Translations under genes and position numbers: made by a program
The notes under the pieces: model-generated
What the model was told of the DNA's origin: nothing
The model's database searches: none
What the model saw: the letters and a program-made list of their open reading frames with translations, nothing else
From: an uncultured delta proteobacterium
GTDB lineage: Bacteria; Desulfobacterota; Binatia; UBA9968
NCBI GenBank assembly: GCA_963737905.1
Contig: CAVTUQ010000022.1
Coordinates: 96,001 to 160,000, forward strand
Direction: 5' to 3'
Length of the DNA stretch: 64,000 nucleotides
Shown here: positions 55,469 through 64,000 of the stretch, piece after piece
How the letters are laid out: every line of letters starts with the position of its first letter
How positions within the stretch are numbered: the first letter of the stretch is position 1

Positions 55469-55777
55469 TGAACTCCTTTCAATCGCCCACACTGCGGTTA
55501 TCCCTGCTTCTGCGCCTACAGAATAGAGTTCCGCCGCAGGCTGAGGTGGCAAGAATGTCTGGGAATCGCTTCGCAGGGAGAGGTCTATTAGACTCTTGAG
55601 CCGCTTCCGTCGCTATTTCAGACTGGATGATAAATTCAGAGAGCAATGTACGTGTTTTTTTTAAAGTCGTCAATCAAATCTCCAAACATTCCAAACATTA
55701 AGTCTTCGATTACGCCCGGTTTACGCAGCGGAGGCTTTGTGGTAGTTTAACGCAACTAATTCAGGGAGTTGTTGTTT

Positions 55778-56524
55778 ATGTCCGGTCATTCGAAATGGAG
55801 CACCATCAAGCACAAAAAGGCGGCCAAGGACGCAAAGAAGGGAAGGCTCTTCACCAAGCTCATCAAGGAAATTACGGTGGCGGCTCGGGTGGGCGGCGGT
55901 GACATCAACTCCAACCCGCGTTTGCGCACGGCCGTGATCACGGCAAGAACCAACAGTATGCCGGGAGACAACATTGAGCGGGCGATCAAAAAGGGCACGG
56001 GAGAATTGGAAGGCGTCTCATACGAAGAAATCCAGTACGAAGGATACGGCCCGGGAGGCGCGGCCATCTTGGCGCAGGTGTTGACGGACAACAAAAACCG
56101 TACGGTCTCTGAGATACGGCGCTTGTTTGTCAAACACGGGGGAAATTTGGGAGAGACCGGTTGTGTGGCGTGGATGTTTGACAAAAAAGGTGTCATCACG
56201 GTGGAAAAATCACAAATCGATGAAGACCGCTTGATGGGTTTGGTGCTAGAAGCGGGTGGAGAAGATGTCAAGGACGAGGGTGATCTATTTGAAGTCGTGA
56301 CCCAACCGGAGGACTTCGAAAGAGTCAAAGAAACACTCGACCGGGAAAAGATAGCTCTTGCTAGCGCGCAAATCACGATGGTCCCGAAAAATACGGTCAC
56401 CGTCGGCGAAAAGCATGTGGAACAGATTCTCAAGTTGACCGAAGAGCTCGAGGATCATGATGACGTGCAAAACGTTTCGGCAAATTTTGATATCCCCAGC
56501 GAGTACCTCGAAAAGGCGAGCTGA
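55778..56524 (+). CDS. yebC: YebC/PmpR-family protein
   Basis: [39 protein letters not shown]. Confidence 0.97.
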
Positions 56525-56562
56525 TGGAGAGAGCCCCGGACCGTTCGGCTCGCCGGGCCGTG

Positions 56563-57102
56563 ATGAGTCGCAGAATCCTGGGCATCGATCCGGGATCGGT
56601 GGTGACCGGATGGGGCATCGTCGAGGCGGTCGGAAATTCCTTGAGTCATGTGGCCTGTGGCACCATCGCGACCGTCGGTGCCCAAGGGCAAGGGGCTCGG
56701 TTAAGCCGCATCTACAGAGGCATTCAGGAAATCATCGTGCGTTATCGTCCGCACGGAGTCAGTCTGGAAAAGGTTTTTTTTGCGCGCAATCCGCAAAGCG
56801 CTCTTAAACTCGGCCAAGCGCGCGGCGTGGCCTTGCTGGCGGCCGCAGAAAACCAACTGGATGTCTACGAATACAGTTCAAACGAGATCAAGTCGGCGGT
56901 GGTCGGGTATGGCCATGCGACCAAAGAGCAAGTGCAGAAAATGATCGCGGCGCTTCTCCATGTTTCAGAGAAGATGGCCGCCGATGCCGCCGATGCTTTG
57001 GCGGCCGCGGTTTGTCACGTTCATCGGCAGGCCTTTCAAGCCCGTATCGTAGAAGCTGCGCCGGACTGGCGGCCTGCGGTGCGCCGGCGCAGGGTGCCAT
57101 AA
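56563..57102 (+). CDS. ruvC: Holliday junction resolvase
   Basis: ILGIDPG, E.VF, LGQARG, DAADALA. Confidence 0.96.
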   Translation: MSRRILGIDPGSVVTGWGIVEAVGNSLSHVACGTIATVGAQGQGARLSRIYRGIQEIIVRYRPHGVSLEKVFFARNPQSALKLGQARGVALLAAAENQLDVYEYSSNEIKSAVVGYGHATKEQVQKMIAALLHVSEKMAADAADALAAAVCHVHRQAFQARIVEAAPDWRPAVRRRRVP

Positions 57103-57154
57103 GCGGCTCCGGTGATTGGGGAAGCCCTGTCCTGAGAGAAATCCAAGATTCACT

Positions 57155-57748
57155 GTGATTGCGCAAATTAGCGGAACCCTGGCGCATAAGTGGCCGGGAG
57201 AAGTCGTCGTCGATGTCGGGGGCGTCGGCTATCAGATATTTATCCCGCTCAACGTTTTCTATCGACTGCCGGACGTGGGCGGTTCCGTCAGTCTTTACAT
57301 TCATACTCATCTAAGGGAAGATGCGCTGCAGTTGTTCGGCTTTCGGGCAGCGGAAGAAAAACAGGTCTTTCTGTTGCTTATCGGCGTTTCCGGCATCGGT
57401 CCCAAGTTGGCCGTCAATATTCTTTCTGGAATTCCGGCGGAGGAATTGGTACAGGCGGTCAAGGATGGCGATCAGCTGCGGCTGGTGTCGATACCGGGAG
57501 TCGGCAAAAAGCTCGCGGAACGTATGATCGTCGAACTCCGAGATAAATTCACGACGCTGCAGTCTCGGCCATCAGAAGCGGTTACTCAAAGCAATGATTC
57601 TCAACTCATTCAGGATGCGGTGTCGGCGCTGGTCAATCTGGGTTATAGAAAAGCGGAAGTCGAGAAAAACGTGCGCGAGATGAGCCAGACGGGCAAACGG
57701 ACTTTGGAAGAAGTGATCAAGGACGTGCTCCGGCGAATGAGCCGCTAG
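57155..57748 (+). CDS. ruvA: Holliday junction branch migration protein A
   Basis: [35 protein letters not shown]. Confidence 0.96.
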
Positions 57749-57756
57749 AACCCGCT

Positions 57757-58827
57757 ATGCCGAAACTTGACGACAGGAGCGAGACCTCGATGCCGGCGCG
57801 ACCCGTGGCGCCCAAGCTGGCCGAGGACGATGCCAACTATGACGTGAACTTGCGGCCTCGCGGTTTCGATGAATACGTCGGTCAGGAACAGGTGAAGGAG
57901 AATCTTAAAGTCGCGATTGCCGCGGCCCGCGGGCGCAACGATGTGTTGGATCATATTTTGTTTCATGGACCGCCGGGGTTGGGCAAGACATCGCTCGCCT
58001 ACATTATCTCGCGGGAGATGGGCGTGAACATCAAAGCGACCTCGGGGCCGGTGGTGGAGCGCCCGGGCGATCTTGCCGCGCTGCTCACGAATCTCGAAGA
58101 CGCCGATATACTTTTTATCGACGAGATTCACCGGCTGAACCACGTGGTGGAGGAGGTTCTTTACCCGGCCATGGAAGATTACCAGATCGATATCATGATA
58201 GGTCAGGGTCCTGCGGCCAGGTCGATGAAGCTGCCTTTAAAGCCGTTTACTTTGATCGGGGCAACGACGAGATCCGGTCTTCTTACCTCGCCGCTGCGCG
58301 ATCGCTTTGGACAAATTTTTCGGCTGGACTTCTATTCCACTCAAGCCCTGGCACAAATCCTTAGGCGATCCGCCTCCATTCTGGGTGTCGCCGCAGAAGA
58401 CGAGGGCACGACCGAGATCGCGCGCCGGTCCCGTGGCACTCCGCGAATCGCGAACCGGCTCTTGCGCCGGGTGCGCGATTTTGCCCAGGTCAAGGCGAGT
58501 GGCACGATCACGAAATCCGTTACCCAAGAAGCTCTGCAAATGTTGGAAGTTGACCCCATCGGTCTCGACAAAATGGACACGATGCTCCTCTTAACCTTGA
58601 TCGACAAGTTTTCGGGCGGCCCTGTTGGAATTGAAACACTGGCGGCGGCGATCGGAGACGAAAAGGACACGATCGAGGACGTGTACGAGCCGTTCTTGAT
58701 TCAAGCGGGGTTTCTCAAGCGAACGCCTCGCGGCCGGGTGGCGACGGAGCTGGCCTACGAACATTTCGGGCGCAACCCCGCATCGCCAAAAGGAACCAGT
58801 TCGAAGAATCAACCCAGCCTGTTTTGA
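57757..58827 (+). CDS. ruvB: Holliday junction branch migration ATPase
   Basis: [31 protein letters not shown]. Confidence 0.98.
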
Positions 58828-58874
58828 AATGGGTTGCGCGGCAGTAACAAAATAACGACGGGCGAAATACGCAA

Positions 58875-59087
58875 ATGACCGGATTGGGTAAGACGCTGAT
58901 CTATATCGGAATCGTGTTGATCATTCTTGGACTGATCGTTTCGATGGCTGGCAAGATTCCCTGGTTGGGGCATCTTCCGGGCGATATCACCATCCAACGG
59001 GATCGGTTCACCTTCTATTTCCCATTGACCACCTGTATCCTTATCAGTGTGATTATAACGCTTGTCCTTTATTTCTTTAGACGGTAA
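58875..59087 (+). CDS. DUF2905 small membrane protein
   Basis: LG.LPGDI...FYFPLTTCILIS. Confidence 0.88.
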   Translation: MTGLGKTLIYIGIVLIILGLIVSMAGKIPWLGHLPGDITIQRDRFTFYFPLTTCILISVIITLVLYFFRR

Positions 59088-59125
59088 AATTTGGCTGTCT
59101 TTTTCTCTCCTTAGAAAGTCTGCTC

Positions 59126-61357
59126 ATGGAAAGTTCGGGCACCGTCGAGTCGATCGAGGCACGCCTCAAGCTGGAGGAAGCCAAGCGCCGCAAACGTGAG
59201 GGTTGGGTGATCCTTGCCACTACCCTCATGGTATTGGCGTTTGCGTTTTTTGAAGTGCAGTTGCCCGAGACGGCGCCAGAGTACTCTTTGGGCAACAATA
59301 TCGCTTTCTTTCTCTTGATCAATGTGAACGTTATCCTCCTGGCGCTGCTGGTTTTTCTCGTTGTCCGCAACTTGGTCAAACTTGTCTTCGAACGCAAGAG
59401 AAGGATCCTGGGTTCACGCCTACGGGTGCGGCTAGTATTGGCATTTGTTGCGCTATCGCTTGTGCCCACGTTGCTGTTGTTCGTCATTGCGGGCGGATTC
59501 GTTACCCGTTCTTTTGAAAGATGGTTTGATCTTCAGGTGGAAAACGCGCTGCAAGGCTCCTTGGAGATCGGCCAGACTTATTATCAAAATTCGGCCAACA
59601 ATGCCTTGTTCTATGCGCGGCAGCTGAGTCAACGCATGACTCGAGAGGGGCTCTTCGAGGCTCATCGACTTGGCGAGCTCAAGGAGTTCATCCAAAACAA
59701 ACAGCAGGAGTATAACCTCGGAACCGTTGAATTGTTCTCGCCTGACTATCGATCACTGGTTGTCGCGTTCAACGAACAAGTACCGACGGGAGTCACCATC
59801 AAACCTGAAAAGGAGTTTCTGAATCGGGCGCTCCGGGGTCTGGAAGTGACGCGAACCCAAGCGTTTGGAGAAGGGGACATTATCCGTGGAGGCGTTCCGA
59901 TCTATAGTGGGGACAAGCGCGTGCTCGGAGTCGTGGTGGTCGACTATTATGTGCCCAAAAGCATCACTAAAAGAGCCTTGCAAATTTCCCGTTCCTACGA
60001 ACAGTACAAACATTTGATGTTTCTCAAGGCGCCGATCAAAAATAGCTATATTTTGACCCTTCTCCTCATCACGTTGGTGATTATCTTCGCGGCCACCTGG
60101 TGTGGGCTTTATCTTGCCAAAGGCATCACGGTCCCGATCCAAAAACTTGCGGAAGGAACCCATGAAGTTGCCCAGGGAAACTGGGACTACAAAATCGATT
60201 CCGGAGGAGACGATGAGATTGGGACTTTGGTGGAATCGTTCAACCAGATGACCCGGGATCTCAAGCAGATCAATTTAGAACTGGAACAGAGAAAGCGCTT
60301 TGTGGAGACGCTTCTCGCCAATATCACGGCAGGCGTGATCGCGGTGGATCCCGCGGGAAGAATTACGACGTGGAACAAGACCGCCGAGGAGATGTTGGGA
60401 GTCGAGGCGGTGGGCGTGCTCGGAAGAAATCAGGAAGAGGTCTTTCAGGGCGGACGGCTCCAAGTCATGCGCGACATCCTGGAAAGCGTGAAAGACCGGG
60501 AGAGCGTGGAGCGCCAAATTAAGATTCCTTTACCGGACCAATTGCTTACCGTGGTGGTGACGGCGGCAACCTTGCGCGACGATGAGGGAAAGACCATGGG
60601 GGTCATGATCTTCCTCGAGGACATTACCCAGATTCAAAAGGTGCAGAGAATGGAGGCCTGGCGCGAAGTCGCGCGGCGCATTGCTCATGAGATCAAAAAT
60701 CCGCTGACGCCCATCCAATTGTCCGCCGAGCGGCTCCGAAAACGGTACGCCAAATTGCTCGAGGGCAACGGTGCGGTTTTGGATAAGTGTACTTCGACCA
60801 TCATCCAGCAGGTGGACGAGCTGAAAAATCTCGTCAATGAATTTTCTCATTTCGCTCGATTGCCTGCGGCCCACCTCACCACTAACGACCTGAACGCGAT
60901 CGTTCAGGAGTCTCTGTTTCTCTTCAAGGAAGGGCATGACAAACTCCACTTCCAATTTCGCAACGGAGATATCCCGCCGCTCGAATTGGACCGGGAACAG
61001 ATCAAACGAGTGATTATCAATTTATTGGACAACGCGGTGGCGGCCGTAGGAGAAAATGGCGAAATCAGGATGACCACGAGTCATGATCCCTCTCGGGGAG
61101 TCGTCTTTTTAGAGGTCGCGGATAATGGCTGTGGTGTGGCGCCGGAAGTAAGAACCAGAATTTTCGAGCCTTATTTTTCCACCAAAAAGAATGGCACTGG
61201 TTTGGGACTCACCATCGTCAGCCAGATCATCGAAGATCACCGGGGCTACATCCGGGTGCGACCCAATGAACCCCAGGGGACCCGGTTGACGATCGAGTTT
61301 CCCGTGCCAACGGAGAGTCAGCTTGTCGAGAACAGGAAGAAGGCAATGCATTCTTAG
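59126..61357 (+). CDS. ntrY: NtrY-like sensor histidine kinase (TM-HAMP-PAS-HisKA-HATPase)
   Basis: GSRLRVRL..F, DEIGTLVESFNQM, AWREVARRIAHEIKNPLTPIQLSAERL, N/G1/F/G2 boxes. Confidence 0.88.
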   Translation: MESSGTVESIEARLKLEEAKRRKREGWVILATTLMVLAFAFFEVQLPETAPEYSLGNNIAFFLLINVNVILLALLVFLVVRNLVKLVFERKRRILGSRLRVRLVLAFVALSLVPTLLLFVIAGGFVTRSFERWFDLQVENALQGSLEIGQTYYQNSANNALFYARQLSQRMTREGLFEAHRLGELKEFIQNKQQEYNLGTVELFSPDYRSLVVAFNEQVPTGVTIKPEKEFLNRALRGLEVTRTQAFGEGDIIRGGVPIYSGDKRVLGVVVVDYYVPKSITKRALQISRSYEQYKHLMFLKAPIKNSYILTLLLITLVIIFAATWCGLYLAKGITVPIQKLAEGTHEVAQGNWDYKIDSGGDDEIGTLVESFNQMTRDLKQINLELEQRKRFVETLLANITAGVIAVDPAGRITTWNKTAEEMLGVEAVGVLGRNQEEVFQGGRLQVMRDILESVKDRESVERQIKIPLPDQLLTVVVTAATLRDDEGKTMGVMIFLEDITQIQKVQRMEAWREVARRIAHEIKNPLTPIQLSAERLRKRYAKLLEGNGAVLDKCTSTIIQQVDELKNLVNEFSHFARLPAAHLTTNDLNAIVQESLFLFKEGHDKLHFQFRNGDIPPLELDREQIKRVIINLLDNAVAAVGENGEIRMTTSHDPSRGVVFLEVADNGCGVAPEVRTRIFEPYFSTKKNGTGLGLTIVSQIIEDHRGYIRVRPNEPQGTRLTIEFPVPTESQLVENRKKAMHS

Positions 61358-61374
61358 ATGAATTTAGGAAGGCG

Positions 61375-62679
61375 ATGAAAGAACGGCCGGCACAGAAAAC
61401 GATACTGATCGTCGATGACGAGGACAAAGTTCGGGAGTCGGTCCGAGAAGTTTTGACCGACGAGGGCTATCGCGTTGTGGACACCGCCGACGGCGCTCGC
61501 GTGCTTGAATTGATTGAACGGGAAAAGCCCGGGCTCGTGCTGCTGGATATTTGGATGCCGCAGATTGACGGCATCGATCTGCTTAAGCAGATTAGGAGCA
61601 AGGAGCCCGCGATCCACGTAGTCATGATTTCAGGCCATGGGAATATTCACACGGCGGTGACGGCGACCAAATTCGGAGCGTTCGATTTTATCGAGAAGCC
61701 GCTGTCTTTAGATGCACTGCTGTTGACGGTGCAGCGGGCCTTAGGTGACTATTCGCCGCGCCGCTCCAAAGGGGTCACCGGTAACGGAGGCAGAAAATCG
61801 AAAACCGGGAAGCGCCCACCGGCGACAGCAAGACGCGGAAACTCGAATCCATCCATCAAGCAACGCACCTTGAAGAAGAGTGTTGTGACATCGGGGCAAG
61901 GACTTCACTCGGGAATGAAGACCGGTCTTATTCTCCACCCGCTACCGCCTAATAGTGGGATTCTCTTCACCGGCATTTCTGGTGATGTGCAGGTACCCGC
62001 CCACCTGGATCATGTGGGATCGACCGGATATGCGACTTCACTCCGCGCCAAGGGGTTTGCCGTGGGGACGGTGGAGCATTTATTGGCCGTGCTGCATAGT
62101 TACGGTATCACCAATCTGCTCGTCAAGGTTCAAGGGGAGGTTCCGATCCTGGATGGTTCCGCCCTGGAGTTCTGTAACCTCATTGACGACGTCGGCGTGC
62201 AGGAAGAAAGGGAGGAATGGTCCGAAATAGTGGTTGATCGACCGTATCGAATCGGGAGCCCCGGGGGTGAGTCGATCACCGTCGAGCCTGCGGAAGTCTT
62301 CTCGGTGCATTATGTTTTGAATTATCCCAAGCCGGTGGGCATCCAAGAGCATACTTACACCCACAGAGGTCCCACCTTGTTTAAGGAAGAAATCGCGCCG
62401 GCCCGAACCTTCGGCTTTTTGAGGGACGTCGAACAGCTGCAACAAGCCGGCTTGGTTAATGGCGGCAAGCTCAACAATTGCATCCTCATTGATGACGAGA
62501 AAATCGTCAATACGGATCTACGATTCCCCAACGAGTTAGCGCGCCACAAGATCCTCGATATTATGGGTGACTTTTACTTACTCGGGAAGCCGGTTCGAGG
62601 TGCCATTACCGCTCACATGACGGGCCACTCCGACAATATTGCCCTGCTGCGAGAGCTGCGAAGCGGGATGGGTCTTTAG
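61375..62679 (+). CDS. lpxC: Receiver domain fused to UDP-3-O-acyl-GlcNAc deacetylase LpxC
   Basis: REC motifs IVDDE, LLDIWMP, ISGHG, IEKP; LpxC motifs QRTL, GLHSG, TVEHL, ARTFGF, RHKILD, GH. Confidence 0.92.
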   Translation: MKERPAQKTILIVDDEDKVRESVREVLTDEGYRVVDTADGARVLELIEREKPGLVLLDIWMPQIDGIDLLKQIRSKEPAIHVVMISGHGNIHTAVTATKFGAFDFIEKPLSLDALLLTVQRALGDYSPRRSKGVTGNGGRKSKTGKRPPATARRGNSNPSIKQRTLKKSVVTSGQGLHSGMKTGLILHPLPPNSGILFTGISGDVQVPAHLDHVGSTGYATSLRAKGFAVGTVEHLLAVLHSYGITNLLVKVQGEVPILDGSALEFCNLIDDVGVQEEREEWSEIVVDRPYRIGSPGGESITVEPAEVFSVHYVLNYPKPVGIQEHTYTHRGPTLFKEEIAPARTFGFLRDVEQLQQAGLVNGGKLNNCILIDDEKIVNTDLRFPNELARHKILDIMGDFYLLGKPVRGAITAHMTGHSDNIALLRELRSGMGL

Positions 62680-62729
62680 CAGAGATCGGCAACTTTGCGC
62701 TCTCTGCACCCTTTCCAAACAACAAAAAT

Positions 62730-63179
62730 ATGGTCTCTTCTGTCTCTTTTCCACGACTCTTTACAGTGGGCGAAGCGAATGTGCTGCTGCCCACGGTGCG
62801 TAGGTTGATGGAAAGGATCGAGGAAAATATCAAGCGACTGAGAAACCAAAGCAAAACCATCATCCGCGATGAACAACTCGATCCAGACGCCATGGATTTC
62901 ATGGACCGATTGCAGGAACATAATGAAATTGCTCGGATCGTGGCAGAAGTCAAAGGCTGGGTGGAAGAGATCCAAAGCTATGGTTGCATCTGCAAGGGAG
63001 TGGAACAGGGTCTCGTCGATTTCCCGTGCCTACTAGGGACGGAAGTGGTGTTTCTCTGCTGGCAGTTGGGTGAGCCGACCGTCAGCTATTGGCACCGGAT
63101 CGAAGACGGCTTTGCGGGGCGCCGCGCCTTGCTTGATGTCGAGAAAACGGAATCCGATAAGAAGAGTCCTTACCACTAA
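62730..63179 (+). CDS. DUF2203-family protein
   Basis: FTVGEAN.LLP, KG.EQGLVDFP, LCWQLGE..V.YWH...GFAGRR. Confidence 0.88.
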   Translation: MVSSVSFPRLFTVGEANVLLPTVRRLMERIEENIKRLRNQSKTIIRDEQLDPDAMDFMDRLQEHNEIARIVAEVKGWVEEIQSYGCICKGVEQGLVDFPCLLGTEVVFLCWQLGEPTVSYWHRIEDGFAGRRALLDVEKTESDKKSPYH

Positions 63180-63253
63180 TCGGTCCGTCAATTTTCCGTT
63201 CATCTCCAATCGTGCTTGTTTCGATTCAATCGGTCGGTAGGTTGGGAGGTTTT

Positions 63254-64000
63254 ATGATCGCCCAGGATGAAGACGCGCTATCGCTCCGGGTCAAAGACGA
63301 AGCACAGCGCCTGGGTTTTGAGTTGGTCGGAATTTCGCCGGTCAAACTTCCGCCCCATGAGGAGTCGTTCGCCGAGTGGCTGCGGCGGGGCTTCTCGGGA
63401 CAGCTGGACTATATGAAACGAACCGAGGATCTACGACGTGATCCCCATCGACTCGTCCCTTGGGCGGTGTCCGTTATCTCGGTCGGAATGAATTATTATA
63501 CGCCTTTTTCCCGCCCGCGAGCGTCGGATCAGCCAAAGGGTTGGATTTCCCGTTACGCGTGGGGCGATGATTACCATACTCTAATCAAAAACCAGTTGGA
63601 GTCTCTCCTCAACGGCATTCGACGGATTTGGAACGGACCCGTGGAAGGAAAAGTCTTTGTGGATTCCGGTCCGGTGCTGGAGCGGGAGTTTGCCGGCATC
63701 GCGGGTGTCGGCTGGATCGGCAAAAACACCCATCTCATTTCCCCCCAAAGGGGCTCGTGGTTTTTTTTGGGAGAACTTTTCCTCAGCATACCGCTCGGTT
63801 ATGATCGGCCGATTCGCGATCGGTGTGGAAAATGCGATCTGTGTTTGAAAGCCTGCCCCACAGGGGCTTTCGTGGGACCCTACGTGCTGGACGCGCGCCG
63901 CTGCATTTCCTACTTGACAATTGAGCTCAAAGGCCTGATGCCTCGCCATCTTCGTCCGCTTGTAGGAAATCACATCTTTGGCTGCGACATCTGTCAAGAG
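63254..64000 (+). CDS. queG: Epoxyqueuosine reductase (partial, runs off the window)
   Basis: ISRYAWGDDYH, VDSGPVLER, GWIGKN, GSWFFLG, CGKCDLCLKACPT, CISYLTIE, FGCDICQ. Confidence 0.95.
   Translation, partial: MIAQDEDALSLRVKDEAQRLGFELVGISPVKLPPHEESFAEWLRRGFSGQLDYMKRTEDLRRDPHRLVPWAVSVISVGMNYYTPFSRPRASDQPKGWISRYAWGDDYHTLIKNQLESLLNGIRRIWNGPVEGKVFVDSGPVLEREFAGIAGVGWIGKNTHLISPQRGSWFFLGELFLSIPLGYDRPIRDRCGKCDLCLKACPTGAFVGPYVLDARRCISYLTIELKGLMPRHLRPLVGNHIFGCDICQE

Follow-up and report, generated by a model that had tools for sequence, protein, structure and literature searches.

A receiver–LpxC fusion encoded beside an NtrY-type kinase as a candidate for direct two-component control of lipid A synthesis

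Why would the enzyme that commits a cell to lipid A synthesis be encoded in the place where a response regulator is expected? This question is raised by a 64-kb window (the whole stretch of DNA that was analysed) of a 6.7-Mb assembly from an uncultured soil bacterium (G000; 87.5% complete, 6.7% contamination), in which the gene for an NtrY/PlrS-type sensor histidine kinase is followed by a single open reading frame that joins a receiver (REC) domain to the deacetylase LpxC. LpxC commits the cell to lipid A synthesis, is a control point of the pathway and a major antibiotic target, and is known to be controlled by proteolysis, through FtsH/LapB/YejM and perhaps also Lon, and at the level of transcription in a few species. 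Here we propose, with moderate confidence, that the two genes form a module descended from an lpxC-dedicated sigma54 system whose regulator was fused to LpxC and lost its AAA+ and helix-turn-helix (HTH) domains, and that the kinase would set LpxC flux post-translationally through the phospho-acceptor D58. The evolutionary part of this proposal, in which a regulator became joined to the protein encoded by its own target gene and its transcriptional machinery was lost, appears well supported by the comparisons below. Since the sole detected LpxC is fused to a receiver derived from the regulator that activates lpxC in related bacteria, direct control of the enzyme by a membrane sensor kinase is probable. 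The features of the locus are as follows.

59126–61357, forward strand: NtrY/PlrS-type sensor histidine kinase, 743 amino acids (aa) (open reading frame and Pfam)
61358–61374, forward strand: intergenic spacer of 17 nucleotides (nt) with a Shine-Dalgarno-like AGGAAGG (read from the sequence)
61375–62679, forward strand: REC-linker-LpxC open reading frame, 434 aa plus stop (open reading frame, Pfam, NCBIfam and AlphaFold2)
61402–61731, forward strand: REC domain, aa 10–119 (Pfam Response_reg, E 2.5e-32)
61747–61854, forward strand: linker, about aa 125–160 (composition and AlphaFold2 confidence)
61861–62658, forward strand: LpxC (UDP-3-O-acyl-GlcNAc deacetylase) domain, aa 163–428 (Pfam E 5.5e-81, TIGR00325)

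The coordinates, the lengths and the 17-nt gap are exactly those given in an earlier note made from the DNA letters alone, and its reading of the protein as an intact NtrX-type receiver, a basic low-complexity linker and a complete LpxC domain starting at 61861 (residue 163), placed in the response-regulator slot after an NtrY-type kinase, holds in every part. The receiver half scores 111.8 bits against PF00072 (cut-off 30.2), which identifies it as a member of the receiver family, and it carries the acidic pocket D14/D15, the phospho-acceptor D58, the switch residues S86 and F105, and K108. Its best NCBIfam model is NtrX (NF051870) at 137 bits, far below the full-length cut-off of 600 and covering the receiver part only, and among solved structures it is closest to 4d6x and 5m7n, which we take to be Brucella NtrX. 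Pfam found no match to PF00158 (AAA+) or PF02954 (HTH) in the 434-aa protein, which places it outside NtrX and the sigma54 activators; judged by domain content and homology, the fusion is a descendant of a sigma54 activator but not a member of that family. The linker is basic (10 K/R, 1 D/E), of low complexity and predicted to be disordered, with an AlphaFold2 predicted local distance difference test score (pLDDT) below 50 at residues 129–157. We compared it across a family alignment of 52 short-form proteins with 38–90% identity to the window protein: in 28 close relatives (at least 74% identity) the linker measures 32–37 aa with a net charge of +3 to +10, and in 24 distant short forms 22–60 aa with a net charge of -3 to +6. 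A basic linker as a family-wide functional element was considered and ruled out, as it is basic only in close relatives.

The LpxC half scores 247 bits against the NCBI equivalog TIGR00325 (cut-off 187.25) and 272.4 bits against PF03331, covering profile positions 1–266 of 268. Its motifs TVEH, ARTFGF, HKILD (the HKxxD of the earlier note) and GH match Pseudomonas aeruginosa LpxC residue by residue, with E234/H235, T345/F346, H391/K392/D395, D399 and H418 as the aligned key residues; these presumably include the zinc ligands (His, His, Asp) and the catalytic Glu/His, Thr and Lys known from the LpxC literature. The domain ends at residue 428 of 434 and thus leaves no C-terminal degron tail. AlphaFold2 models the fusion as two well-folded domains (mean pLDDT 86.6; predicted template modelling score, pTM, 0.84), and the LpxC half superposes on solved LpxC structures with a target-normalised template modelling score of 0.84–0.95 and a root-mean-square deviation of 1.6–2.1 Å over about 275 columns, so that in the predicted model the LpxC fold is present. 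Among the matches listed when the fusion model was compared with known structures, none covered both domains.

Is this LpxC the one on which the cell depends? The fusion locus is the sole PF03331 match in the 6.7-Mb G000 assembly, which bears out its candidacy as the genome's only lpxC, and only one LpxC-covering match is listed in each of the closed genomes G025, G026, G028, G037 and G038; G036 has, in addition, a partial LpxC at the end of a contig. The genes lpxD, lpxA, lpxB and lpxK are present in G000 and clustered on contig 7. The sole PF03331 match, together with these pathway genes, suggests that the LpxC half is the cell's lipid A deacetylase. As a side observation, the LpxA C-terminal domain (PF13720) is matched twice in G000, once within the lpxD-lpxA-lpxB-lpxK cluster (C7:165184–165429) and once elsewhere (C3:58958–59200).

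The 743-aa kinase has the five domains and the conserved histidine of an NtrY-type histidine kinase: NtrY_N (31.4 bits versus a cut-off of 23.2), HAMP, PAS, HisKA and HATPase_c all lie above their Pfam cut-offs, and the HisKA H-box reads HEIKNPLTPI, of which HEIKNPLT is invariant in an alignment of 14 kinases. Its N-terminus comprises a membrane region (NtrY_N) and a putative periplasmic sensor domain, with a weak dCache_3 match at aa 137–272 that stays below the Pfam cut-off (21.9 versus 25.7 bits). A kinase of this kind stands directly 5' of the short fusion in loci L003–L018 and 5' of longer forms, described below, in L020 and L021. In four genomes (G093, G145, G095 and G041) fusion and kinase are not linked, and an orthologous kinase (35–47% identity) is found elsewhere in each, with no cognate regulator gene beside it; the weak REC match near the unlinked kinase of G145 is part of an unrelated kinase/receiver pair on the opposite strand. 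Because the unlinked kinases lack a neighbouring regulator gene, REC-LpxC remains the obvious partner, a pairing to which both adjacency and these orphan kinases point.

An older, unfused arrangement is found in four genomes of a 151-genome sample of the phylum (loci L024–L027), which carry a stand-alone lpxC, a DUF4390 gene, an NtrY-like kinase and a 453–474-aa REC-AAA+-HTH regulator that keeps the GAFTGA and Walker B motifs. Their kinases are 43–46% and their receivers 54–59% identical to those of the window. The two pairs are reciprocal best hits, with the fusion returned from G000 for the receiver (150.5 bits, next best 102.5) and the window kinase for the kinase (627.7 bits, next best 112.8), which suggests that the window kinase and receiver are orthologous to an lpxC-adjacent sigma54 system. 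A scan of genome contigs with a kinase alignment extended this picture. Among the best 80 of at least 600 kinase stretches (loci L038–L117), a REC-AAA+ regulator follows the kinase in 60 and a long fusion in 2, and lpxC lies 1.2–2.1 kb upstream on the same strand in 9, drawn from several phyla: Deltaproteobacteria metagenome-assembled genomes (MAGs), Syntrophobacterales, Syntrophales, Candidatus Acidoferrum and three Rokubacteria MAGs. A sigma54 -24/-12 element, defined as GG-N10-GC with at least 9 of 11 consensus positions, precedes lpxC by 35–73 nt in eight of these nine loci (0.025 expected per region) and lies upstream of lpxC in one of L024–L027 (about 0.02 expected by chance per region). 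These arrangements argue that the link to lpxC predates the fusion, with the unfused orthologous system adjoining lpxC and apparently driving it from a sigma54 promoter. One further unfused locus, L045 (677–4500), comes from a MAG labelled Candidatus Binatia and encodes a kinase 43% identical to that of the window followed by a GAFTGA-bearing REC-AAA+ regulator with a 58% identical receiver, with no LpxC within 10 kb downstream; the Binatia label therefore covers both unfused and fused states.

A comparable dedication to lpxC is documented in Desulfovibrio. In D. vulgaris, the kinase DVU2931 and the sigma54-dependent regulator DVU2934 are encoded in one operon, and the regulator has a single target, lpxC; in S. 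fumaroxidans the orthologous kinase/regulator operon is immediately preceded by lpxC (PMC3333781 for both). For the Desulfovibrio system at large (DVU2931/DVU2934; Dde_3000/Dde_3003 in D. alaskensis G20), lpxC is the only known target (PMC3333781, PMC4045070). The window pair resembles this system in tying an NtrY-like kinase and an NtrC-family receiver to lpxC, and its unfused orthologues, which carry sigma54 promoters at lpxC, match the S. fumaroxidans arrangement in their order lpxC-DUF4390-kinase-activator. By contrast, Desulfovibrio control is transcriptional and runs through a GAFTGA-bearing AAA+ domain and an HTH, whereas in the fusion both are absent and a covalent bond ties the receiver to the enzyme. 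The best 80 of the at least 600 kinase stretches included no record from D. vulgaris or S. fumaroxidans.

The NtrYX family offers a second comparison. The window kinase shares the architecture NtrY_N-HAMP-PAS-HisKA-HATPase_c with NtrY and PlrS, the best model for its partner receiver is NtrX, and the unfused relatives carry upstream a DUF4390 gene, which PMC13001219 equates with PlrP, the periplasmic member of the three-component PlrSR systems of the NtrYX family. Unlike the fusion, which lacks AAA+ and HTH and has an enzyme as its single output, NtrX and PlrR bind DNA and govern large regulons; NtrYX alters lpxC transcript levels in R. sphaeroides (PMC7240162) and in C. crescentus (PMC12444477). 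The window kinase is preceded not by a DUF4390 gene but by ruvB, which sets the locus apart from the PlrP/PlrS/PlrR type. DUF4390 (PF14334) was not found in G000 (87.5% complete), G001, G026 or G037 by a search that found it in G094 and G145. Separately, a DUF4390 gene lies just upstream of NtrY-like kinases in 16 of the best 80 loci (for example L047, L050, L072, L081, L087 and L051), in MAGs labelled Nitrospirae/Nitrospiria, Acidobacteriota, Methylomirabilota and Deltaproteobacteria and also in Desulfogranum marinum; this range is broader than the proteobacterial one studied in PMC13001219.

How the short fusion arose is recorded in its longer relatives. We searched 1.84 billion cluster representatives and examined the best 150, which included about 22 complete short REC-LpxC clusters (412–505 aa) and 15 complete clusters of 650–736 aa, plus fragments. 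In Pfam terms, the long forms of about 700 aa consist of REC, Sigma54_activat, AAA_lid_14 and LpxC, and a 491-aa form consists of REC, a weak sub-threshold HTH_8 and LpxC; by source label, the forms run from Deltaproteobacteria MAGs (734 aa) and Nitrospinota (681 aa) through Candidatus Entotheonellia (491 aa) to Candidatus Binatia (434 aa). When long forms were aligned with the unfused regulators, the GAFTGA loop and the Walker B glutamate were both lost in 19 of 19 and the Walker A P-loop was kept in 17 of 19. By these losses, the long-form AAA+ domain is a predicted pseudo-ATPase, unable to activate sigma54.

In a tree of the LpxC domain (123 rows), all fused LpxCs fall on one side of a branch with 100% support in the Shimodaira–Hasegawa-like approximate likelihood ratio test, away from 58 of 62 stand-alone LpxCs, and in a tree of a 62-row subset the outgroup split of the fused clade has 99% support. 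Within the clade, short forms are scattered among long ones (the 491-aa P0132, for example, is sister to the 735-aa P0142 with 100% support), and in an approximately unbiased (AU) test on the 62-row subset under LG+G4, a tree uniting all 35 short forms against the 19 long ones was rejected (delta log-likelihood 325.5, p-AU 5e-50), the tested group having been defined by domain architecture after the first tree had been seen. Starred branches of the 62-row tree force at least three architecture changes, and parsimony counts nine. Since regain of an AAA+ domain at the same position is implausible, the direction is from long to short, several times, and REC was kept through each repeated AAA+ loss. 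The window's own clade (7–8 rows, 96–97% support) holds short forms only. The view that fused LpxCs form one clade, in which fusion would have arisen once and the short form repeatedly by AAA+ loss, is thus well supported phylogenetically. The earlier note had held that an enzyme replaced the AAA+ and HTH domains: both are indeed gone from the window protein, but this was no simple replacement, as the whole REC-AAA+-HTH protein appears to have been fused to LpxC first and to have lost the two domains later. As an aside, four proteins of about 285 aa without a receiver (P0161, P0169, P0199 and P0228) nest in the fused clade and may be fragments, truncated calls or secondary fissions.

These comparisons establish a sequence of events. 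An ancestral DUF4390/kinase/sigma54-activator system was dedicated to transcribing a neighbouring lpxC; its REC-AAA+-HTH activator then joined LpxC, with the enzyme at its C-terminus; the AAA+ domain lost its sigma54-contact loop and catalytic glutamate; and AAA+ and HTH were deleted in several lineages, the window's included, to leave REC-linker-LpxC. In the present-day module, the kinase would set the phosphorylation state of D58, and the receiver switch (S86/F105 and the alpha4-beta5-alpha5 face), by a conformational change or dimerisation, would alter LpxC flux after translation. We prefer altered catalytic competence, brought about by receiver-driven self-association or by a CheB-like release of a receiver–LpxC contact, to altered protein stability, and the model would accommodate either activation or inhibition. 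The pTM of the predicted structure is higher than a confidently placed LpxC domain alone, with 63% of the residues, would allow, a hint that the two domains pack in a defined way; a complex prediction run without controls on LpxC (aa 158–434) and REC (aa 1–128) as separate chains scored 0.14 against a mark of 0.32 and counts neither way. A broader form of the proposal, in which slow sigma54 transcriptional control gave way to a direct, reversible phospho-switch on the sole LpxC, so that an envelope-sensing kinase would set lipid A flux in real time with neither transcription nor proteolysis, in Binatia and other fusion lineages, the device having evolved once and been streamlined at least three times, is offered more tentatively, as a serious possibility that falls a little short of probable.

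Several points weigh against this proposal. An effect of phosphorylation on the activity, oligomeric state or stability of LpxC is plausible but inferred. Because the linker varies in length, charge and sequence across the family, no common coupling mechanism can be read from it. The incompleteness and contamination of G000 limit the claim to a sole LpxC, and one genome of the phylum sample, G074, encodes both a REC-LpxC fusion (C11:39482–40771, 41% identity) and a stand-alone lpxC (C33:20144–20962); the fusion is therefore not always the only copy. On the ancestral side, no sigma54 promoter was found before lpxC in three of the four loci L024–L027, and orthology to the Desulfovibrio genes themselves would rest on gene arrangement, promoter type and the S. 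fumaroxidans remark in PMC3333781. Finally, HTH_8 scores above its cut-off between lid and LpxC in four of nine long forms scanned, and some members of the family may therefore still act on DNA. Apart from this weighing, G074 is a natural case in which to ask what a fused copy adds.

The best-surviving alternative is regulated proteolysis, in which phosphorylation of the receiver would expose or hide a degradation signal, with the linker, for example, as an entry site for an AAA+ protease, and the kinase would set the amount of LpxC and not its activity, a two-component counterpart of the FtsH/LapB or Lon control found in other bacteria. LpxC is controlled by proteolysis in E. coli and, less securely, in alphaproteobacteria (PMC12444477); the linker is predicted to be disordered, and the lack of a C-terminal tail that could serve as a degron has been counted on the same side. 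Against it, no degron or adaptor was identified and the linker is not conserved across the family, and we regard this explanation as unlikely, if still worth weighing. Improbable, in our view, is a reversed or scaffolding role, with LpxC acting as a substrate or product sensor or being tethered to the membrane by the kinase and the receiver serving as a docking module or phosphate sink. No other regulator gene stands beside the kinase, and the lipid-linked substrate of LpxC means that membrane proximity could matter; but there is no DNA-binding or other output, so that a sensor would control nothing, and the conserved S86 and F105 argue for a working conformational switch and not just docking.

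That the receiver is vestigial, a frozen accident on a constitutive LpxC with no signalling, is a very improbable reading that draws on the decay and loss of two other parts of the ancestral regulator, its AAA+ and HTH domains. REC has taken a different course. In the 52-sequence alignment, which reaches down to 38% identity, D14, D15, S86 and K108 are invariant (52/52), D58 is kept in 51 and F105 in 49; the LpxC residues E234, H235, F346, H391, K392, D395, D399 and H418 are likewise found in 52/52 and T345 in 51/52. Identity to the window protein is much the same for REC and LpxC (81/81% in L005, 66/65% in L017 and 54/59% in L014), and by this measure REC diverges no faster than LpxC and both halves are under purifying selection. 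The partner kinase has also been retained, adjacent or as an orphan, and REC survived at least three independent deletions of its neighbouring domain.

The weakest alternative, that an assembly deletion or gene calling joined a separate ntrX and lpxC, is refuted for practical purposes: such separate genes do exist in more distant relatives, as the ancestral state and in another gene order with lpxC first, but the same fused frame recurs across the order, closed genomes included, and in independent contigs across the junction. The order sample held 41 genomes from three families and 27 genera, including the unpublished G006 and G012, and a full-length one-frame fusion was found in 37 of the 41 (35 of 39 without the unpublished two), in line with the architecture that the earlier note had pointed to as a test, and in place of the separate ntrX and lpxC that it had named as the sign of an artefact. 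Three further fusions are cut by contig ends (G003, G014 and G031), and G020 (71% complete) is the sole genome of the 41 with no fusion match; 18 further genomes of the phylum sample have full-length fusion matches. Among the matches listed from NCBI, JGI, ENA and Logan, all 120 homologue clusters at 74–99% identity (424–444 aa) contain both Pfam domains, and three of them are labelled Candidatus Binatia bacterium. The junction around 61700–61900, singled out in the same note, is crossed without indels or joints by contigs from public runs (X1 record 3, 61245–62750; X9 record 15, 61489–62094; X4 records, 61719–61877), of which X1 may be the source sample, so that independent support comes from X9, which belongs to another study, and X4. 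In a different set of candidates, frames of 1000–1400 aa in G150, G183 and G116 that looked like hybrid kinase-REC-LpxC proteins were rejected: the kinase has a frame of its own, and the extra length comes from upstream read-through in GC-rich DNA.

Receivers tied by a flexible linker to an enzyme domain that works in a phosphorylation-dependent way are familiar from CheB (REC-methylesterase), PleD and WspR (REC-GGDEF) and RpfG (REC-HD-GYP), in which coupling works by release of an inhibitory contact (CheB) or by dimerisation (PleD and WspR). By analogy, the window protein may follow the same receiver–enzyme principle, although the outputs of those proteins belong to signalling and adaptation pathways. 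Enzyme-output response regulators are thus already known, and it is LpxC as the output, and with it the mode of LpxC control, that would be new. That LpxC tolerates fusion is illustrated by the NCBIfam model LpxC-FabZ (PRK13188), which differs in having a pathway enzyme at the C-terminus where the present protein has a signalling domain at the N-terminus. The fusion would share with the E. coli FtsH/LapB/YejM system the use of LpxC amount or activity as the control point of lipid A synthesis (PMC12444477), and differs from E. coli LpxC in having no C-terminal degron tail. No account of a receiver-LpxC or NtrX-LpxC fusion turned up in our search of the full-text literature. A 2025 review of lipid A regulation (PMC12444477) mentions NtrYX solely for transcriptional effects, in two alphaproteobacteria, and the terms "response regulator" and "fused" do not occur in it; database labels of the fusion proteins are simply LpxC or NtrX.

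If the proposal is right, direct two-component control would be added to LpxC regulation, a previously undescribed control of the committed step of outer-membrane biogenesis, and one kinase with one fused enzyme would be a minimal system in which to look for the envelope signal that controls lipid A flux. The organisms are uncultured and function is inferred; even so, the evolutionary series is unusually complete: it starts with a transcription factor encoded next to the gene that it controls, passes through a fusion whose AAA+ is a decaying pseudo-ATPase and ends in a minimal receiver-enzyme, and it illustrates how regulation can move from DNA to protein.

Within the window, the ATG at 61375 is preceded by the Shine-Dalgarno-like AGGAAGG, and co-transcription of kinase and fusion is probable. 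The X1 record 3 contig extends over both genes, which attests to contiguity and not to a single transcript, and RNA evidence consists of one 198-nt metatranscriptome contig (62436–62633), too little to claim expression or co-transcription. A scan of 58600–63300 gave two sigma-70 promoter-like sites versus 2.7 in shuffled sequence and eight terminator-like sites versus 5.2 ± 2.3, which is uninformative; at the kinase/fusion locus, no terminator-like sites exceeded the shuffle expectation. At the threshold used, no sigma54 promoter was found upstream of the window kinase, the fusion or 11 other fused-operon starts. The flanking genes are housekeeping genes whose link to the two-component pair is not evident: upstream (55769–58827) lie a yebC-like gene, ruvC, ruvA and ruvB in a row, with ruvB preceding the kinase, and downstream (62730–64000) lie a DUF2203 gene and then queG (epoxyqueuosine reductase), which runs past the window end.

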